A stretch of DNA of 64,000 nt from sequence record PZ445526.1, one strand, 5' to 3'. The position numbers were made by a program, and so were the translations under genes. The stretch comes from a phage. This document shows positions 7,594 through 45,260 of the stretch, in pieces (within the stretch, counting starts at the first letter, position 1; each line of letters begins with the position of its first letter). Below the pieces are notes generated by a model. The model made no database searches, had not been told where the DNA came from, and was given only the letters and a program-made list of their open reading frames with translations.

Positions 7594-9276
7594 TTAAACC
7601 ATTACAGTAAATCGACCAACTTTCTTCATTTGAAGATGCTGACCGTATGCTTGTGGGTCATGGTCTCTATGCGAAATAACAAAAACATTAGTATTTTTTA
7701 AACTATCTAAAATAGTTGAAATAGCTTTTACACCTTCAACGTCGGTCGCTGAATCAAAAACTTCATCAAGAATCAGTGTGTTTATTTTAACACCTGAAAC
7801 TTTTTCAGCAATATCACGCCAAGTAAATAAAAGAGCAATATCAATTCGCGCTTTTTCACCTTGACTAAATGAAGCATAACTAAAATCTTCACGACCACGG
7901 GATTTAATTGTCTCATTAAATTCTTCATCTAATGTAAACACATAATCCGCTTCCATTATTTTAAGATAATGGTTAATCTGCTTATTAAATAATGGAATGT
8001 ACTTTTTAATAATAGCACCTTTAATACCAGAATCTTTGAGCATATCAGTCAAAATTCCTCGGTGGTATTTTTCCATTACTAAATTAGTTTTTGTCTTAAC
8101 AATTTTATCAAGTTCTTCTTGAAGCAGTGCTATTTCATCAGCATGGTCAATAAACTCAGAAGATGCTTTTTCTATAGCTGCTTTAACTTTTTTAGCTTTA
8201 TCTACCGTCGTGATTAGAGATTGCTTTTTATTGCGAATATCATTTGCCAACGACTGTTGGGTTTTAATATTATCTCGGTATTCATCAACAAGAACTTTTA
8301 AATTATCACGATGTGTTGAAAGCTGTTCAAACGAATGCGTACATTCAGAAACTTTATCTTTAATTTTAGAAACAACTTTATCACCGGAACTTAATTGTGA
8401 CAAACAGGTTGGACATAATCCACCTTCGTGATACATATTAATGACTTTATTATACGAGTCAATTTTTGATTTAATTAAAACTGCTTCTTGACCGATTTTA
8501 TTAAATGCATCAGTCGGGTCTTCATCCAAAACAATATTAACTAATCTTTCATTAGCTTCTTCTATTTCCGATTTTAGCGTTCTAGCTTCCTTTGCCAAAT
8601 CGTCATACATATTCTGCAGACGAGTAAGGTTGTCACCAGACAATTTTTTCTGGCGTTCAACGTTATCATTATATATTTTAATTTGTTGGATAATACTATC
8701 TTTTTTAACATCAAGCACTTGGTTCTGCGAATTTAATTCACGTATTAGTGCTTTATTAAGCTTATCCATTTCAGCTAATGTTCCTACCTCGAGCAGGTCT
8801 TCCACAAGCTTTCTTCGCGCAGGGGTCGACAAACCCATGAAAGGGGTATACCCTGCTGTACCAAGGACAACAATCTGCTTGAAACTGGCATATGACATTC
8901 CGATAAGCTGTTCAAATTCTGCTTGGAAATCTTTACTGCTGGCAGATTCATTAAGACGTGTACCGTTAACGGTGATTTCGAAAACGTTTGGTTTTTGTCC
9001 TCTTTTGATATAGTACTTTTTCTCATCATATTCCATCCACAGTTCAACTAAAAGTTCTTTCTTATTTGTGCTGTTTATTAATTGACCTTTCTTTACATCA
9101 CGGAATGGCTTGCCAAAAAGCCCAAATGTGATGGCTTCTAACATAGTAGACTTACCACCGCCATTTCGTCCAGTAATAAGAGTTTTTTGAACCTTATCTA
9201 ATTGAATGTCAATAGGATTTCCACCTACTGACATTATATTTTGATACCTAACTCGGTTTAGTTTAAAATTCTTCAC
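7594..9276 (-). CDS. 46: recombination/repair nuclease subunit, Rad50/SbcC-like ATPase
   Basis: 560-aa ORF; N-terminal Walker A GRNGGGKST, central coiled coil with CxxC hook (CPTC), C-terminal signature/Walker B (LILDEVFD). Confidence 0.92.
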   Translation of the reverse strand: MKNFKLNRVRYQNIMSVGGNPIDIQLDKVQKTLITGRNGGGKSTMLEAITFGLFGKPFRDVKKGQLINSTNKKELLVELWMEYDEKKYYIKRGQKPNVFEITVNGTRLNESASSKDFQAEFEQLIGMSYASFKQIVVLGTAGYTPFMGLSTPARRKLVEDLLEVGTLAEMDKLNKALIRELNSQNQVLDVKKDSIIQQIKIYNDNVERQKKLSGDNLTRLQNMYDDLAKEARTLKSEIEEANERLVNIVLDEDPTDAFNKIGQEAVLIKSKIDSYNKVINMYHEGGLCPTCLSQLSSGDKVVSKIKDKVSECTHSFEQLSTHRDNLKVLVDEYRDNIKTQQSLANDIRNKKQSLITTVDKAKKVKAAIEKASSEFIDHADEIALLQEELDKIVKTKTNLVMEKYHRGILTDMLKDSGIKGAIIKKYIPLFNKQINHYLKIMEADYVFTLDEEFNETIKSRGREDFSYASFSQGEKARIDIALLFTWRDIAEKVSGVKINTLILDEVFDSATDVEGVKAISTILDSLKNTNVFVISHRDHDPQAYGQHLQMKKVGRFTVMV

Positions 9277-43081: not shown

Positions 43082-43648
43082 TTATTTGCTTAGTTTAGTT
43101 ATTATAGCTTCTGCGGCAGCTTTTAGCTTAGATGCGGTGTTAATACGATTTTTAATTTCAGTATACGCATCGCCAAGAACATCAAGGCTATCAGAATAAA
43201 CACTTACACTATTGCGTTCGCTATTTGAAATAGAACCTTTAGTTTTACGATCAAAATCGGTGTATACGTCTTGAAGATCGCGTGCTGCCTTCTTTGCATC
43301 ATCCAATGCATCAAGAGCTTTATTCAAAGCATTAACGTATTTTTTAGTATCGAACATATTCTTAGAAATTTTAACAGGCGCACGTTCAGGAGTAGCTAAG
43401 GCAGATTTAGGAAGAACCTGTTTGCCAGATGCCAGTTTCTTAGAAATTTTGAAAAACGCTTTATTGAAATTATTTTCTTGACTCATCGTAAAAGAACTAT
43501 TATCAATGTTATACATTTCAATAGCTTTAGCTTTCCACTTAAGAAAATCGCCACGGTCTTTTGGGTCCAAGTGGAAGAATACTTTAGTAAGATCTGCTTC
43601 AGATGGTAATTTTGCTGCTTCGGTTAAAAATTCGGCATAGGTTTTCAT
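43082..43648 (-). CDS. internal-protein-like gene with capsid targeting sequence (188 aa)
   Basis: N-terminus MKTYAEFLTEA (capsid-targeting-like, LxE cleavage context); the payload is not recognized. Confidence 0.6.
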   Translation of the reverse strand: MKTYAEFLTEAAKLPSEADLTKVFFHLDPKDRGDFLKWKAKAIEMYNIDNSSFTMSQENNFNKAFFKISKKLASGKQVLPKSALATPERAPVKISKNMFDTKKYVNALNKALDALDDAKKAARDLQDVYTDFDRKTKGSISNSERNSVSVYSDSLDVLGDAYTEIKNRINTASKLKAAAEAIITKLSK

Positions 43649-43723
43649 TTAAAATCCTTGAAATAATTTATTGGTTATTAATTATTTATTATCCGTAACA
43701 GCATTCTCTGAGTGATTCAAACT

Positions 43724-43749
43724 AAAAAGCCCCAACCTTTCGGTCAGGG
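43724..43749 (-). terminator. GNRA-loop terminator hairpin at the 3' end of the structured RNA region
   Basis: Minus-sense CCCUGACC-GAAA-GGUUGGGG followed by CUUUUUAGUUUG. Confidence 0.55.
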
Positions 43750-44055
43750 CTAAGCCTTGCGGCAACCTTGTCGGGGTTCCACCTGCTAAGGCAAGTGTTT
43801 GTACGAAACGCCGGGACTTGAACCCGGTTATTAAGTAGTTGACGCTACTCAATATTTTTAAAAGGCCATATCTCGACCATATCCGAACGTTCCGTCAAAA
43901 ACGCTACTCGGCTTACGGCAAAGATATTTCCTCGAATCGATAATTCGGTGCGCCGTTTCTGCTGTGATGTAAGGGGATATTAACAAATCGTAAAGATTTA
44001 TTAAGACCAGTCCTTACTCAGGGAACATCAGTCCGACGACTTACCGGTAGCGACC
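43724..44055 (-). ncRNA. candidate stable small RNA(s), possibly homologous to T4 species 1/2 RNAs (rnaC/rnaD)
   Basis: About 330 bp without a convincing ORF, GC-richer than surroundings, with a tRNA-like T-arm (ACCGGGUUCAAGUCCCGGC) and a 3' terminator hairpin, adjacent to the tRNA cluster; boundaries uncertain. Confidence 0.4.
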
Positions 44056-44062
44056 CGGTTTC

Positions 44063-44413
44063 TTAATATTCTTTTAAAGCATCAATCTGTTCACGGCGTT
44101 TACGCCATAAATCAATTGCTTCATACGCGGATTCAGCATTTCGAATTGGTCGGCATTTATGTAAAGACTTGTGATTTTGATATTTTGTAGATAATGGAAT
44201 TTTATCTAAAAGGTCTTTACGTTCAAAGTATTCGTAACCATCTAAACCAAATGAACGATTTTTGAGAAATTGCCAATGACCATATTCGTTTTGGATGTAA
44301 ATATAATCCGCGTGTTGATAAAGCAAATTAGTTTCACGAGATGAGATATGGTTTTCATATTCATTGAAGTAAAATGTTAAATCATGAACTACTAAATAAA
44401 CATTACCTTTCAT
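44063..44413 (-). CDS. hypothetical protein
   Basis: 116-aa ORF with Shine-Dalgarno GAGGAA 7 nt upstream of the ATG; lies between tRNA-Arg and the RNA region. Confidence 0.5.
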   Translation of the reverse strand: MKGNVYLVVHDLTFYFNEYENHISSRETNLLYQHADYIYIQNEYGHWQFLKNRSFGLDGYEYFERKDLLDKIPLSTKYQNHKSLHKCRPIRNAESAYEAIDLWRKRREQIDALKEY

Positions 44414-44431
44414 ATTTTCCTCACTTATAAT

Positions 44432-44507
44432 TGGTCGAGGCAGTAGGGATCGAACCTACGACCCAGGACTTAGAAGGTCCTTGCTCTTCCTTCTGAGCTA
44501 TGCCTCG
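44432..44507 (-). tRNA. tRNA-Arg (UCU)
   Basis: Cloverleaf by hand: acceptor CGAGGCA/UGCCUCG, T-loop GUUCGAUCC, anticodon loop CUUCUAA, encoded CCA. Confidence 0.8.
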
Positions 44508-44511
44508 GATT

Positions 44512-44586
44512 TGGCGGACGTGATAGGATTCGAACCTATAACCAATCGCTTAACAGGCGATCGCTCTGCCATTGAGCTACACATCC
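44512..44586 (-). tRNA. tRNA-Asn (GUU)
   Basis: Acceptor GGAUGUG/CACGUCC (one G-U pair), D-loop with GG, anticodon stem AUCGC/GCGAU, loop CUGUUAA, T-loop UUCGAAU, encoded CCA; not part of the canonical eight T4 tRNAs as I recall them. Confidence 0.65.
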
Positions 44587-44590
44587 AAAT

Positions 44591-44677
44591 TGGTGGGGAG
44601 TGATGGAGTCGAACCACCCGAGTCGCAATGACAATGGATTTACAGTCCACACCGCTACCTCTACGGGATAACTCCCC
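44591..44677 (-). tRNA. tRNA-Tyr (GUA), long variable arm
   Basis: Acceptor GGGGAGU/ACUCCCC, anticodon loop CUGUAAA, 15-nt variable arm with its own stem, T-loop UUCGACU, encoded CCA; not part of the canonical T4 set as I recall it. Confidence 0.65.
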
Positions 44678-44687
44678 CAAATTAATT

Positions 44688-44762
44688 TGGTGGCCCTGGG
44701 TGGAATTGAACCACCATCTGGCGATTATGAGTCGCTTGCTTGAACCTTCCAGCTACAGGGCC
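44688..44762 (-). tRNA. tRNA-Ile (CAU; Met-type anticodon, likely lysidine-modified as in T4)
   Basis: Acceptor GGCCCUG/CAGGGCC, anticodon loop CUCAUAA, T-loop UUCAAUU, encoded CCA. Confidence 0.75.
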
Positions 44763-44763
44763 T

Positions 44764-44840
44764 TGGTGCTGATTGACGGAATCGAACCGCCGACCTTCTC
44801 ATTACAAGTGAGTTGCTCTACCTACTGAGCTAAATCAGCA
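44764..44840 (-). tRNA. tRNA-Thr (UGU)
   Basis: Acceptor UGCUGAU/AUCAGCA, anticodon loop CUUGUAA, T-loop UUCGAUU, encoded CCA. Confidence 0.75.
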
Positions 44841-44844
44841 AAAC

Positions 44845-44934
44845 TGGCGGAGGCGATAGGATTTGAACCTATGAGTCGCCGGAGCGACTGCCGGTTTTCA
44901 AGACCGGTGCATTAAACCACTCTGCCACGCCTCC
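44845..44934 (-). tRNA. tRNA-Ser (UGA), long variable arm
   Basis: Acceptor GGAGGCG/CGCCUCC, anticodon stem CCGGU/ACCGG with loop CUUGAAA, long variable arm, T-loop UUCAAAU, encoded CCA. Confidence 0.8.
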
Positions 44935-44936
44935 AG

Positions 44937-45010
44937 TCTCCGTGGCAGGATTTGAACCTACGACATTCTGCTCCCAAAGCAGACGCTCTACCAAACTGAG
45001 CTACACGGAG
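44937..45010 (-). tRNA. tRNA-Pro (UGG), CCA not encoded
   Basis: Acceptor CUCCGUG/CACGGAG, anticodon loop UUUGGGA, T-loop UUCAAAU; 3' end abuts tRNA-Ser (Pro-Ser dimer arrangement known from T4). Confidence 0.8.
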
Positions 45011-45020
45011 TAAATTAAAT

Positions 45021-45094
<74 letters not shown>

Positions 45095-45099
45095 AAATT

Positions 45100-45186
45100 T
45101 GGTGCGAGAAGTGGGACTCGAACCCACAAGGAAATCATTCCGCAGCATTTTAAGTGCTGTGCCTTTACCAATTTGACCATTCTCGC
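45100..45186 (-). tRNA. tRNA-Leu (UAA), long variable arm
   Basis: Sequence GCGAGAAUGGUCAAAUUGGUAAAGGCACAGCACUUAAAAUGCUGCGG...GGGUUCGAGUCCCACUUCUCGCACCA matches T4 tRNA-Leu as I recall it. Confidence 0.85.
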
Positions 45187-45187
45187 G

Positions 45188-45260
45188 CTGGGAATAAAGG
45201 ACTCGAACCTTTGCATCCTGGAATCAAAATCCAGTGCCTTACCAACTTGGCTAATTCCCA
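45188..45260 (-). tRNA. tRNA-Gln (UUG), CCA not fully encoded
   Basis: Acceptor UGGGAAU/AUUCCCA, anticodon loop UUUUGAU, T-loop UUCGAGU; directly abuts tRNA-Leu (Gln-Leu dimer arrangement). Confidence 0.8.

Follow-up and report, generated by a model that had tools for sequence, protein, structure and literature searches.

The rnaD-rnaC locus of a T4-like phage: two non-coding RNAs, a covariation-supported fold for rnaC, and a proposed loop-loop contact

What does a phage encode where the DNA next to its tRNA genes holds no convincing open reading frame (ORF)? Such a region was noticed in the 64,000-nt stretch of phage DNA analyzed here (record PZ445526.1; the whole stretch is called the window), and the original prediction, made from the letters alone, was that it specifies stable small RNAs, possibly at the homologous locus of T4 species 1 and 2. 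These two T4 RNAs (genes rnaC and rnaD) have been known for about 50 years and were sequenced in the 1970s, and they belong to the oldest “orphan” RNAs known to molecular biology. Processing of T4 species 1 by RNase P and RNase III was described in work of the 1970s-80s. RNAC and RNAD of T4 have been seen by RNA-seq, validated by northern blotting, and classed as late RNAs (PMC9697503), and the T4 cluster is transcribed as one precursor that terminates after the species I gene (PMC2330249). A T4-like phage that was adapting to a semi-permissive E. coli host has been reported to acquire a convergent point mutation in rnaD (PMC12685909). No function is given for rnaC or rnaD in PMC3014915, PMC9697503, or PMC12685909.

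Identity and layout of the locus

On the minus strand, positions 44062-43724 of the window are about 95% identical to the annotated rnaD-rnaC locus of RB9 and T4, and blastn found the same sequence in about 800 records of T4-like phages. The annotated features under the matches are the ncRNAs rnaC and rnaD (RB9 KM606998, T4 GT7 KJ477686, T4T, RB6, and Kha5h). A three-way alignment of the window with RB9 and T4 was colinear and near-invariant from rnaD through the terminator. On this identity and on the architecture of the region, we assign it with high confidence to the rnaD-rnaC locus of a T4-like (Tequatrovirus-type) phage, comprising two ncRNAs, a trailer hairpin, and a terminator. The locus is thus one already known, recognized here correctly, and no new kind of element.

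The order on the minus strand is rnaD, a 5-nt spacer, rnaC, the trailer hairpin, and the GNRA-loop terminator (Table 1). The tRNA array is on the same strand, with the two RNAs distal to it, and the terminator comes last and is the end of the tRNA-cluster transcription unit. A 116-aa ORF shares this transcription unit with the RNAs without being part of them, and it is absent from this place in T4 and RB9. The trailer is retained beside rnaD in phages that have no rnaC (L006 and related), and its hairpin carries one compensatory G-C to A-U change in L135. Trailer and terminator together have a folding z-score of -3.56 relative to dinucleotide shuffles.

Homology to the T4 species 1 and 2 locus, the main guess of the original prediction, was borne out by this identity and by the ncRNA annotations under the matches, and the alignment with T4 rnaC and rnaD that had been suggested as a check is colinear over both RNAs. 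The GNRA hairpin with its U-run had been placed at 43724-43749, which is essentially right (stem-loop and U-run as in Table 1), and the higher GC content than in the flanks also stands, with 47.0% at 43724-44055 versus 34.9% over the whole window, 34.3% on the left flank, and 30.8% in the right-hand ORF. The location beside the tRNA genes holds as far as the common strand and the upstream position of the array are concerned; the two are not immediately adjacent, as the 116-aa ORF intervenes. Two points needed correction: the region holds not one RNA but two, with a conserved trailer, and the right boundary had been set at 44055 whereas the element reaches 44062, directly after the stop codon of the upstream ORF.

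A search of the whole window at Rfam gathering thresholds returned ten tRNAs and nothing at the locus, which fits no Rfam family. At E ≤ 10, a search of 43600-44450 gave sub-threshold noise (SNORD102, U12, and a mascRNA T-arm fragment) and no tRNA model match at the locus. In the proposed Infernal/Rfam check, no family, tRNA, or tmRNA model matched the region, and the identity came from the annotated T4 and RB9 homologues. ARAGORN with default settings found no cloverleaf and no tmRNA in 43700-44430. A “permuted tmRNA” (with an unidentified 33-aa tag) and a “tRNA-Leu with intron” were called only at lowered thresholds with introns allowed and were discarded as artefacts.

Table 1. Features of the rnaD-rnaC locus and its surroundings (positions in the window)
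Feature	Position	Strand	Basis or remark
tRNA array, 10 genes (Gln, Leu, Gly, Pro, Ser, Thr, Met, Tyr, Asn, Arg)	44432..45260	-	Order same as in RB9
116-aa ORF, phrog_3355 (no function assigned)	44063..44413	-	Between tRNA-Arg and rnaD
rnaD (T4 “species 2”) homologue, ~117 nt	43946..44062	-	Colinear with RB9 rnaD (L001 2499-2619)
rnaD 5' hairpin, 5 bp, loop GUCGCUA	44059-44043	-	A-U <-> G-C change seen
rnaD rod, basal stem and variable apical hairpin	44040-44034 with ~43955-43948 (basal stem)	-	Fold
Spacer AAUUA, 5 nt, between rnaD and rnaC	43941..43945	-	Alignment against RB9 and T4 annotations
rnaC (T4 “species 1”) homologue, 139 nt by T4 annotation (UCGAUUCG...CGUUUCGUA)	43802..43940	-	Colinear with T4 GT7 (L002 2622-2760) and RB9 rnaC
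rnaC acceptor-like stem, CGAUUCG with CGUUUCG, 7 positions, central tandem U.U	43933..43939 + 43810-43804	-	Helix 1
rnaC closing 3-bp stem of long arm	43932-43930 with 43865-43863	-	Helix 2
rnaC long arm, helices and internal loops, sequence-variable between genera	43870..43925	-	Helices 3-5
rnaC hexaloop L1 UUGACG, tip of long arm	43893..43898	-	Exact reverse complement of L2
rnaC hexaloop L2 CGUCAA, tip of 10-bp arm, proposed kissing partner of L1	43839..43844	-	Helix 6, 100% paired
rnaC 10-bp hairpin, “anticodon-arm-like / variable-arm-like”, 1 nt from T arm	43829..43854	-	Helix 7
rnaC T arm CCGGG-UUCAAGU-CCCGG, continuing into acceptor 3' strand as in tRNA	43811..43827	-	Helix 8
Conserved trailer including hairpin CACUUGC-CUUA-GCAGGUG (43797-43780)	43752..43801	-	Near-invariant in T4-type phages
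Intrinsic terminator, 10-bp stem, GAAA (GNRA) loop (43751-43728), UUUUU	43723..43751	-	Conserved with T4 and RB9

Distribution and predicted folds of rnaC and rnaD

Homologues of rnaC amounted to 34 distinct sequences from at least 10 Tevenvirinae-type genera, often between tRNA genes. The window's own rnaC scored E = 3e-42 in nhmmer with a profile of homologues that included this very sequence. In other genera, rnaC is placed between tRNA genes exactly like another tRNA, and the equivalent spacer, about 5-8 nt long (AAUUAU or AAUAAU type), comes after the CCA with which the upstream tRNA ends. VR7 and Kosakonia phage 305 retain rnaC with no tRNA gene within 400 nt. Some relatives keep rnaD without rnaC, and most genera with rnaC lack rnaD; thus neither RNA is essential and joint action is not required. 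A strict pattern for the 3' half of rnaC matched 13 metagenome contigs, all T4-like, and was absent from 185,579 species genomes of bacteria or archaea. A pattern of the T arm and acceptor only picked up no member whose body differed, and about 90 loci from a loose two-anchor pattern were chance matches that nhmmer removed.

The covariation analysis across T4-like phages, another check named in the original prediction, covered 24 distinct aligned rnaC sequences and 45 proposed pairs. Compensatory changes on both sides were found in 25 of the 45 pairs. Standard pairs filled 98% of cells versus 36-51% in slid controls, and none of 500 shuffles reached the observed pairing values. The helices were recovered independently by RNAalifold, and all consensus helices form in the window sequence, with a folding z-score of -4.41 relative to dinucleotide shuffles. 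The predicted fold supported by this covariation is an acceptor/T-arm minihelix with a long arm and a 10-bp arm.

The five standard pairs of the acceptor-like stem are paired in 100% of the sequences, with A-U in 10 and G-C in 14 at pair 3 (n = 24), and the tandem U.U pairs are invariant. The 3-bp stem closing the long arm is likewise invariant and is therefore untouched by the covariation test. Both sides changed in 15 of 17 pairs of the long arm (helices 3-5) and in 7 of 9 pairs of the 10-bp hairpin (helix 7), where 97% of cells are paired. The middle pair of the T stem is G-C (n = 12), U-A (n = 10), A-U (n = 1), or U-G (n = 1) in the 24 sequences, and the T loop is mostly UUCRARU, with UGCAUGC or UGCAUCC in members of Kanagawavirus and Winklervirus. 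The tail reads U-ACAA in most sequences and U-CCAA in the Marfavirus clade only; CCA is not conserved. The tRNA-like T arm without a full cloverleaf that had first drawn attention to the region (43827-43811, minus strand) belongs to rnaC, as part of an acceptor/T-arm minihelix without a tRNA body.

The two hexaloops of rnaC, L1 and L2, are perfectly complementary in all 34 distinct homologues, as UUGACG/CGUCAA in 28 and as UUGGCG/CGCCAA in 6. The latter are the six Marfavirus-clade sequences, in which both loops switched together; in the 24-sequence alignment, the loop-loop pair 46-102 is A-U in 20 and G-C in 4. The joint switch in this clade argues for a 6-bp loop-loop contact. The reading of L1 and L2 as a kissing contact, which would lock the rnaC body, rests on perfect conservation and a single double-change event, in one clade. 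The contact could instead be intermolecular, giving dimers or multimers, and sequence analysis alone cannot tell these arrangements apart.

The alignment of rnaD took in 19 distinct variants, in which the 5' 46 nt are invariant and the 3' 23 nt mostly so, while the tip has been replaced outright among variants, with three unrelated apical sequences that each fold as a hairpin. The folding z-score is -2.99 relative to dinucleotide shuffles. rnaD is thus a rod-like hairpin whose basal parts do not vary and whose tip is exchangeable, together with a small 5' hairpin. The idea that rnaD is a tRNA-like RNA with a CCA end was rejected, as the end is CCA in T4 and RB9 but CCG, CAG, or CCU elsewhere and the overhang of the basal stem is 2 nt only.

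Possible roles of the two RNAs

rnaC is not a decoder, since it has neither an anticodon loop nor a conserved CCA, and it is probably not an antisense RNA, as its conserved loops are occupied by each other. We tentatively suggest, with low confidence, that rnaC may be a trans-acting mimic of tRNA and bind a protein that recognizes the acceptor/T-arm half, as a decoy, sponge, or adaptor. The non-canonical T loop in Kanagawavirus and Winklervirus weakens a strict reading as tRNA mimic. In the proposed pathway, host enzymes of tRNA processing would excise rnaC and rnaD from the polycistronic tRNA precursor, with RNase P recognizing the rnaC minihelix and 3' trimming coming next, and both RNAs would accumulate as stable RNAs.

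A more specific form of the tRNA-mimic proposal, which we put forward as doubtful, is that rnaC, locked by the kissing contact and released by processing, might be a decoy or sponge for a host factor that recognizes the acceptor/T-arm half of tRNA (such as a tRNA-targeting defense toxin or a tRNA-end-modifying enzyme), with rnaD, given its invariant base and swappable tip, as a second, host-specific effector. Such a role of rnaD would fit the report of the convergent rnaD mutation (PMC12685909). If true, this would provide a function for two RNAs that have been without one since the 1970s. The comparative set offers testable handles, namely the rnaC fold, the loop-loop contact with its natural double change, rnaC as an independent tRNA-like module in at least 10 genera, and rnaD with its invariant base and exchangeable tip.

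The locus may also serve the tRNA precursor in cis only, through nuclease entry, 3' protection, and termination, with the stable RNAs as by-products. A role in cis would agree with the position of the region at the 3' end of the polycistronic precursor (PMC2330249), with the conservation of both terminator and trailer hairpin, and with a pairing that the full-length fold allows between GAAACG of rnaD and CGUUUC in the 3' strand of rnaC. We nevertheless consider it rather unlikely that this is the only role, because several genera have rnaC inside the array, with a tRNA on either side and not at the 3' end, and because it also occurs in phages that lack any tRNA gene within 400 nt. An elaborate covarying 140-nt fold with loop-loop complementarity would be left unexplained, and discrete late RNA species accumulate in T4 (PMC9697503).

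It is improbable that L1 and L2 pair between molecules, so that rnaC would form dimers or rings and be an assembly or scaffold RNA like the phi29 prohead RNA (pRNA). rnaC does have two hairpin loops that are exact complements and change in concert, it is a late RNA in T4, and the multimerization of pRNA was defined by the same kind of loop-complementarity evidence. However, T4 head assembly and DNA packaging (gp17/gp20) have been reconstituted without any RNA, close relatives with the same virion genes lack rnaC, and pRNA has no counterpart of the tRNA-like minihelix.

Decay of former tRNA genes would account for the acceptor/T-arm minihelix of rnaC and for the tRNA-like slots that it fills in arrays; rnaC and rnaD would then be processed for their tRNA-like ends and be functionless in themselves. 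The 3' 95 nt of the L078 rnaC homologue are called “tRNA-Met” by ARAGORN, and both RNAs are dispensable in some relatives. This origin would leave little reason for 25 covarying pairs retained over at least 10 genera in a body unlike that of tRNA, for hexaloops that stay complementary in 34 of 34 variants through a coordinated double change, or for the almost wholly invariant 46-nt and 23-nt blocks of an rnaD whose tip is replaced, and rnaC is kept by VR7 and Kosakonia phage 305 with no tRNA gene closer than 400 nt. When rnaC was aligned locally with the ten resident tRNAs one by one, no score stood clearly above those of shuffled controls and no significant similarity extended beyond the T loop, and the parent tRNA of rnaC therefore cannot be named. 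Derivation of rnaC from a class II tRNA, with the 10-bp hairpin as the long variable arm, is speculation. Signs of purifying selection on structure are already present and speak against such decay. Taken as decayed tRNA genes without a function, the two RNAs are very poorly explained, and we give this little credence.

The interval from the stop codon that closes the 116-aa ORF (44063-44065) to the ATG opening the following ORF (43648) contains no ORFs except three that begin with TTG, which are 56, 42, and 34 aa long. In Kagamiyamavirus, Gelderlandvirus, Karamvirus, and Winklervirus, rnaC homologues lie a few nucleotides from tRNA genes on both sides, so that these short ORFs cannot be conserved, in agreement with the earlier judgment that no ORF is convincing. 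That the minus-strand ORFs of 56 aa (43682-43852) and 42 aa (43858-43986) are real small genes is scarcely credible: such frames, with the 34-aa one, are present, “hypothetical protein” features lie beneath the match in many deposited genomes, and the F48 annotation puts CDS vBKpnF48_274 across its rnaC homologue, but none of the three TTG-started ORFs has an obvious preceding gene context, the 56-aa ORF passes through the terminator hairpin, the homologous 140 nt are bounded by tRNAs in other genera so that neither ORF is conservable, substitutions are compensatory in helices and not codon-periodic, and curated records annotate ncRNA here. A point for annotation is that neither RNA has an Rfam family and that many T4-like genomes list “hypothetical proteins” over them.

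Comparison with known RNAs

The rnaC of T4 (139-140 nt) is about 97% identical to that of the window over 139 nt and has the same strand and the same place between rnaD and the trailer and terminator. There are few substitutions overall, and the T loop is UUCAAGU in the window versus UUCGAAU in T4. The rnaD of T4 and RB9 (~120 nt) is identical to that of the window over the 5' 46 nt and nearly so over the 3' 23 nt, and the rod fold and the type of apical hairpin are alike; the apical hairpin differs at several positions, and the 3' end is CCG in the window versus CCA in T4 and RB9. In RB9, rnaD starts 2 nt after tRNA-Arg, and the homologous sequence in T4 does likewise, whereas rnaD of the window follows the stop codon of an ORF. 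T4 GT7 has no rnaD annotated, yet the homologous sequence directly follows tRNA-Arg. Compared with T4, the transcription unit of the window has the extra 116-aa ORF between tRNA-Arg and rnaD and no segB.

Known loop-loop (kissing) RNAs include phi29 prohead RNA, the L2-L3 contact of the lysine riboswitch, and TAR-TAR*. Like these, rnaC has two loops that are fully complementary over 6 nt, as in 6-nt TAR-TAR* kissing complexes, but it has no sequence or architectural homology to them, and the likeness is one of principle only. With phi29-type prohead RNA in particular, loop complementarity is the sole feature in common, and the Rfam search gave no match.

The 7-position acceptor stem of rnaC, which runs on into a T stem of 5 bp with a T loop of 7 nt, resembles that of tRNA (RF00005) and of tRNA-like minihelix domains such as the one in tmRNA, and rnaC also occupies tRNA slots in arrays. 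rnaC differs from tRNA in having no D arm and no 7-nt anticodon loop, a “variable region” of 1 nt, a tandem U.U in the acceptor, and an unconserved CCA. It differs from tmRNA in having no tag reading frame and in the acceptor pair 3-70, which is A-U or G-C and not G.U. The bacterial Y-RNA-like YrlA is, like rnaC, an ncRNA that joins a T-arm/acceptor mimic to a non-tRNA helix. YrlA carries its tRNA-like module internally and uses its two ends for the stem that binds Ro/Rsr, whereas the ends of rnaC make up the acceptor.

Identity and coding content of the locus

Region 43724-44055, whose relevant strand is the minus strand as for the ten tRNA genes at 44432-45260, was matched by blastn in about 800 T4-like phage records of the phage collection (hosts Escherichia, Shigella, Yersinia, Salmonella, and others). 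Curated records, including RB9 (KM606998) and T4 GT7 (KJ477686) as well as T4T, RB6, and Kha5h, label the locus as the ncRNAs rnaD ("species II RNA") and rnaC ("small, stable RNA; species 1 RNA"). A three-way alignment was colinear and almost invariant from rnaD through the terminator, and window coordinates were obtained by annotation transfer through it. The annotated homologues and the colinear alignment thus support the original prediction of a locus homologous to T4 species 1 and 2, and on homology we identify it as the already known rnaD-rnaC locus. The predicted region itself stood; its upper limit did not, as the element reaches 44062.

Elements of the rnaD-rnaC locus, parts of rnaC, and adjacent ORFs
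Feature	Coordinates	Strand	Description
116-aa ORF	44063-44413	minus	phrog_3355 (unknown function), between tRNA-Arg and rnaD
rnaD	44062-43946	minus	annotation transfer
Spacer AAUUA	43945-43941	minus	annotation transfer
rnaC	43940-43802	minus	UCGAUUCG...CGUUUCGUA, 139 nt; annotation transfer
(i) Acceptor-like stem			7 positions: C-G, G-C, A-U (or G-C), U.U, U.U, C-G, G-C
(ii) T arm			5-bp T stem, 7-nt loop
(iii) Long arm			borne on invariant 3-bp stem directly after acceptor; tip is hexaloop L1 (43898-43893)
(iv) Linker			9 nt, A-rich
(v) Second hairpin			10 bp; tip is hexaloop L2 (43844-43839); 1 nt before T stem
Conserved trailer	43801-43752	minus	annotation transfer
Terminator	43751-43723	minus	annotation transfer
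188-aa ORF	43082-43648	minus	phrog_2280, downstream of terminator

The rnaD-rnaC region is non-coding. The interval from the 116-aa ORF stop codon (44063-44065) to 43648, where the next ORF starts, holds only TTG-started ORFs of 56, 42, and 34 aa, which bears out the description of the region as ORF-free and leaves these short frames to the rival reading as small ORFs. GC content is 47.0% versus 34.9% in the window and 31-34% in the flanks, again as predicted, and folding z-scores against dinucleotide shuffles are -2.99, -4.41, and -3.56 for three sub-regions, each of which beats its own shuffles. The T-arm-like element lies at 43827-43811, and the GNRA hairpin of the terminator at 43751-43728, followed by the U run. 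ARAGORN at default settings called neither a tRNA nor a tmRNA in the rnaD-rnaC region, in line with a tRNA-like element without a full cloverleaf. Folding, ORF content, GC content, and the located elements together confirm the initial observation.

No Rfam family matched the whole window at gathering thresholds or the region at E<=10; Rfam holds no family for rnaC and none for rnaD. Most deposited T4-like genomes have nothing annotated across the two RNAs, or "hypothetical protein" CDSs such as vBKpnF48_274, XRA41194.1, and Ursula_CDS0182, the last also overlapping tRNA-Trp.

Architecture and distribution of rnaC

RNAalifold recovered the rnaC helices on a 24-sequence alignment. On this alignment the explicit structure gave standard pairs in 98% of cells versus 36-51% with partners slid, 25 of the 45 pairs had changed on both sides, and none of 500 shuffles matched any observed measure, so covariation across T4-like phages supports the fold. 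The acceptor-like stem runs into the T arm without a spacer, and pairing of the long arm is maintained though its sequence is wholly different between genera. The T loop is UUCRARU in most members and UGCAUGC or UGCAUCC in Kanagawavirus and Winklervirus. These non-canonical loops (canonical UUCRANN) occur at Kanagawavirus loci L004, L015, and L016 and in Winklervirus LC53 (L020) with the T stem kept, and the T-loop consensus is thus dispensable for the role of rnaC.

The tail after the acceptor is U-ACAA, with U-ACAG in one clade and U-CCAA, an encoded CCA, in the Marfavirus/F48 clade (loci L019, L024, L036, L038, L124, and L134). Given the U-ACAA tail outside the Marfavirus clade, a CCA end is not conserved in rnaC; the encoded CCA prompts the question of whether such an end is ever present on rnaC. 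The reading of rnaC and rnaD as tRNA relics would draw on the acceptor-like stem and T arm; rnaC does not significantly resemble any of the ten tRNAs in the window. At locus L078 of another record (8491-8585, minus), default ARAGORN calls the 3' 95 nt of the rnaC homologue a 95-nt "tRNA-Met(cat)", almost certainly falsely: the acceptor/T arm would have prompted the call, with the 10-bp hairpin taken for a long variable arm. Deposited genomes may contain similar misannotations.

With further blastn and pattern scans of IMG/VR and metagenomes, the set of rnaC homologues came to 34 distinct sequences. In all 34, hexaloop L1 is the exact reverse complement of hexaloop L2; the pair is UUGACG and CGUCAA except in the six Marfavirus-clade sequences, which have UUGGCG and CGCCAA, a coordinated A to G and U to C change. 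Since the stems of both hairpins covary, both hairpins form, and we therefore read the complementarity as a probable 6-bp loop-loop contact, intra- or intermolecular, on the basis of one evolutionary event and perfect conservation. The intermolecular form would correspond to the rival view of rnaC as a pRNA-like multimer. The most conserved rnaC loops would be occupied by each other and not free for antisense pairing.

In other genera, weaker blastn matches found the rnaC part alone, inside tRNA arrays: between tRNA-Phe and tRNA-Trp (Kagamiyamavirus EcS1, Winklervirus LC53), between tRNA-Trp and tRNA-Gly (Gelderlandvirus CF-SP2, Karamvirus VPA32 and Pet-CM3-4), and after tRNA-Met (Kanagawavirus IME523). 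Gaprivervirus VR7 and Kosakonia phage 305 carry it with no tRNA gene within 400 nt. In CUA3 (L006, PP410321, 1498-1700), MX01, and IME540, rnaD is retained together with the trailer hairpin and terminator but rnaC is lacking, the CUA3-type joint coinciding with the rnaC boundaries (…GGCGCACNGA/ACACUUGCC…). Occurrence alone in other genera and precise absence in CUA3 relatives mark rnaC as an independent module, behaving as a discrete unit of gain and loss. A scan of 185,579 species genomes of bacteria and archaea with the strict rnaC pattern gave no copy.

Structure of rnaD and the trailer

We obtained 19 distinct versions of rnaD, from phages of Tequatrovirus, Gaprivervirus, and the CUA3 type, the last possibly Mosigvirus. 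The 46-nt 5' block is invariant among them and the 23-nt 3' block largely so, with variation at a single internal position and in the final two bases; the 5' hairpin shows an A-U to G-C change, and the apex has three unrelated sequences, each folding as a hairpin. Thus, rnaD is rod-shaped, its base under constraint and its tip exchangeable. The basal helices are invariant, which places the base outside the reach of covariation. A tRNA-like end for rnaD was ruled out, as the CCA 3' end occurs only in T4 and RB9. Conservation extends to the trailer hairpin (43797-43780), in which a single compensatory change was seen; the hairpin adjoins rnaD even where rnaC is missing.

In T4-type sequences, rnaD GAAACG (43957-43952) is a perfect complement of the rnaC 3' acceptor strand CGUUUC (43810-43805), and the MFE structure of the full 347-nt precursor has this pairing in place of the U.U-containing acceptor. 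It may be a precursor-specific alternative structure; the segments are invariant in the T4 group, beyond the reach of covariation. The trailer also carries CCCCGAC (43775-43769, minus), some 20 nt before the terminator. The terminator 5' strand (43748-43742) is CCCUGAC here versus CCCCGAC in T4 and RB9. Either copy is a potential partner for the terminator 3' strand GGUUGGGG, which makes an anti-terminator-like alternative possible. In other phages the terminator 5' strand varies without a matching change in the upstream copy.

Possible roles and genomic setting

The rnaD-rnaC pair lies in the tRNA transcription unit. In T4, RNase P acts on species 1 precursors, and RNase III cleaves the mature RNA in vitro. 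Judging from placement and the minihelix, tRNA-processing enzymes would release both RNAs from the polycistronic precursor, to persist as stable species. Having no anticodon loop, rnaC cannot decode; tentatively, it might bind protein by mimicking the acceptor/T-arm half of tRNA. A single T4 tRNA-cluster precursor of ~1.75 kb, ending after the species I gene, has been reported (PMC2330249), a setting that the rival reading of both RNAs as cis-only processing elements would share. RNA-seq of T4-infected cells detected both RNAs, northern blotting validated them, and they were assigned to the late RNA class (PMC9697503); their function is described as unknown (PMC3014915). When a T4-like phage was evolved experimentally in a 2025 study, every line adapted to host ECOR34 shared one convergent SNP, located inside rnaD (PMC12685909). 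What is added here is comparative structure, above all the co-varying complementary loops, by which a 50-year-old orphan RNA becomes directly testable.

Within the cluster, the Rfam tRNA model gives tRNA-Tyr (44591-44677, minus) a score of only 30.2 bits, for a threshold of 29, and the other nine tRNAs 59-74 bits. G50, ime09, and many other relatives carry an extra 157-aa ORF and a second terminator copy downstream of the rnaC trailer (L012 1143-1616, minus), which explains two-piece blastn matches. The N-terminus of this ORF, MKSYAQFLNEA..., resembles MKTYAEFLTEA... of the 188-aa ORF.

The 116-aa ORF, which has no Pfam match, ends in a stop codon immediately adjacent to the first conserved rnaD base. 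In RB9, by contrast, rnaD starts 2 nt past tRNA-Arg, and the homologous T4 sequence does likewise, so the ORF appears to have been inserted into the tRNA/stable-RNA transcription unit. T4 has segB elsewhere in its tRNA cluster, and the position of the 116-aa ORF is analogous to that of segB, or to the "two ORFs" of the T2L tRNA region (PMC2330249).
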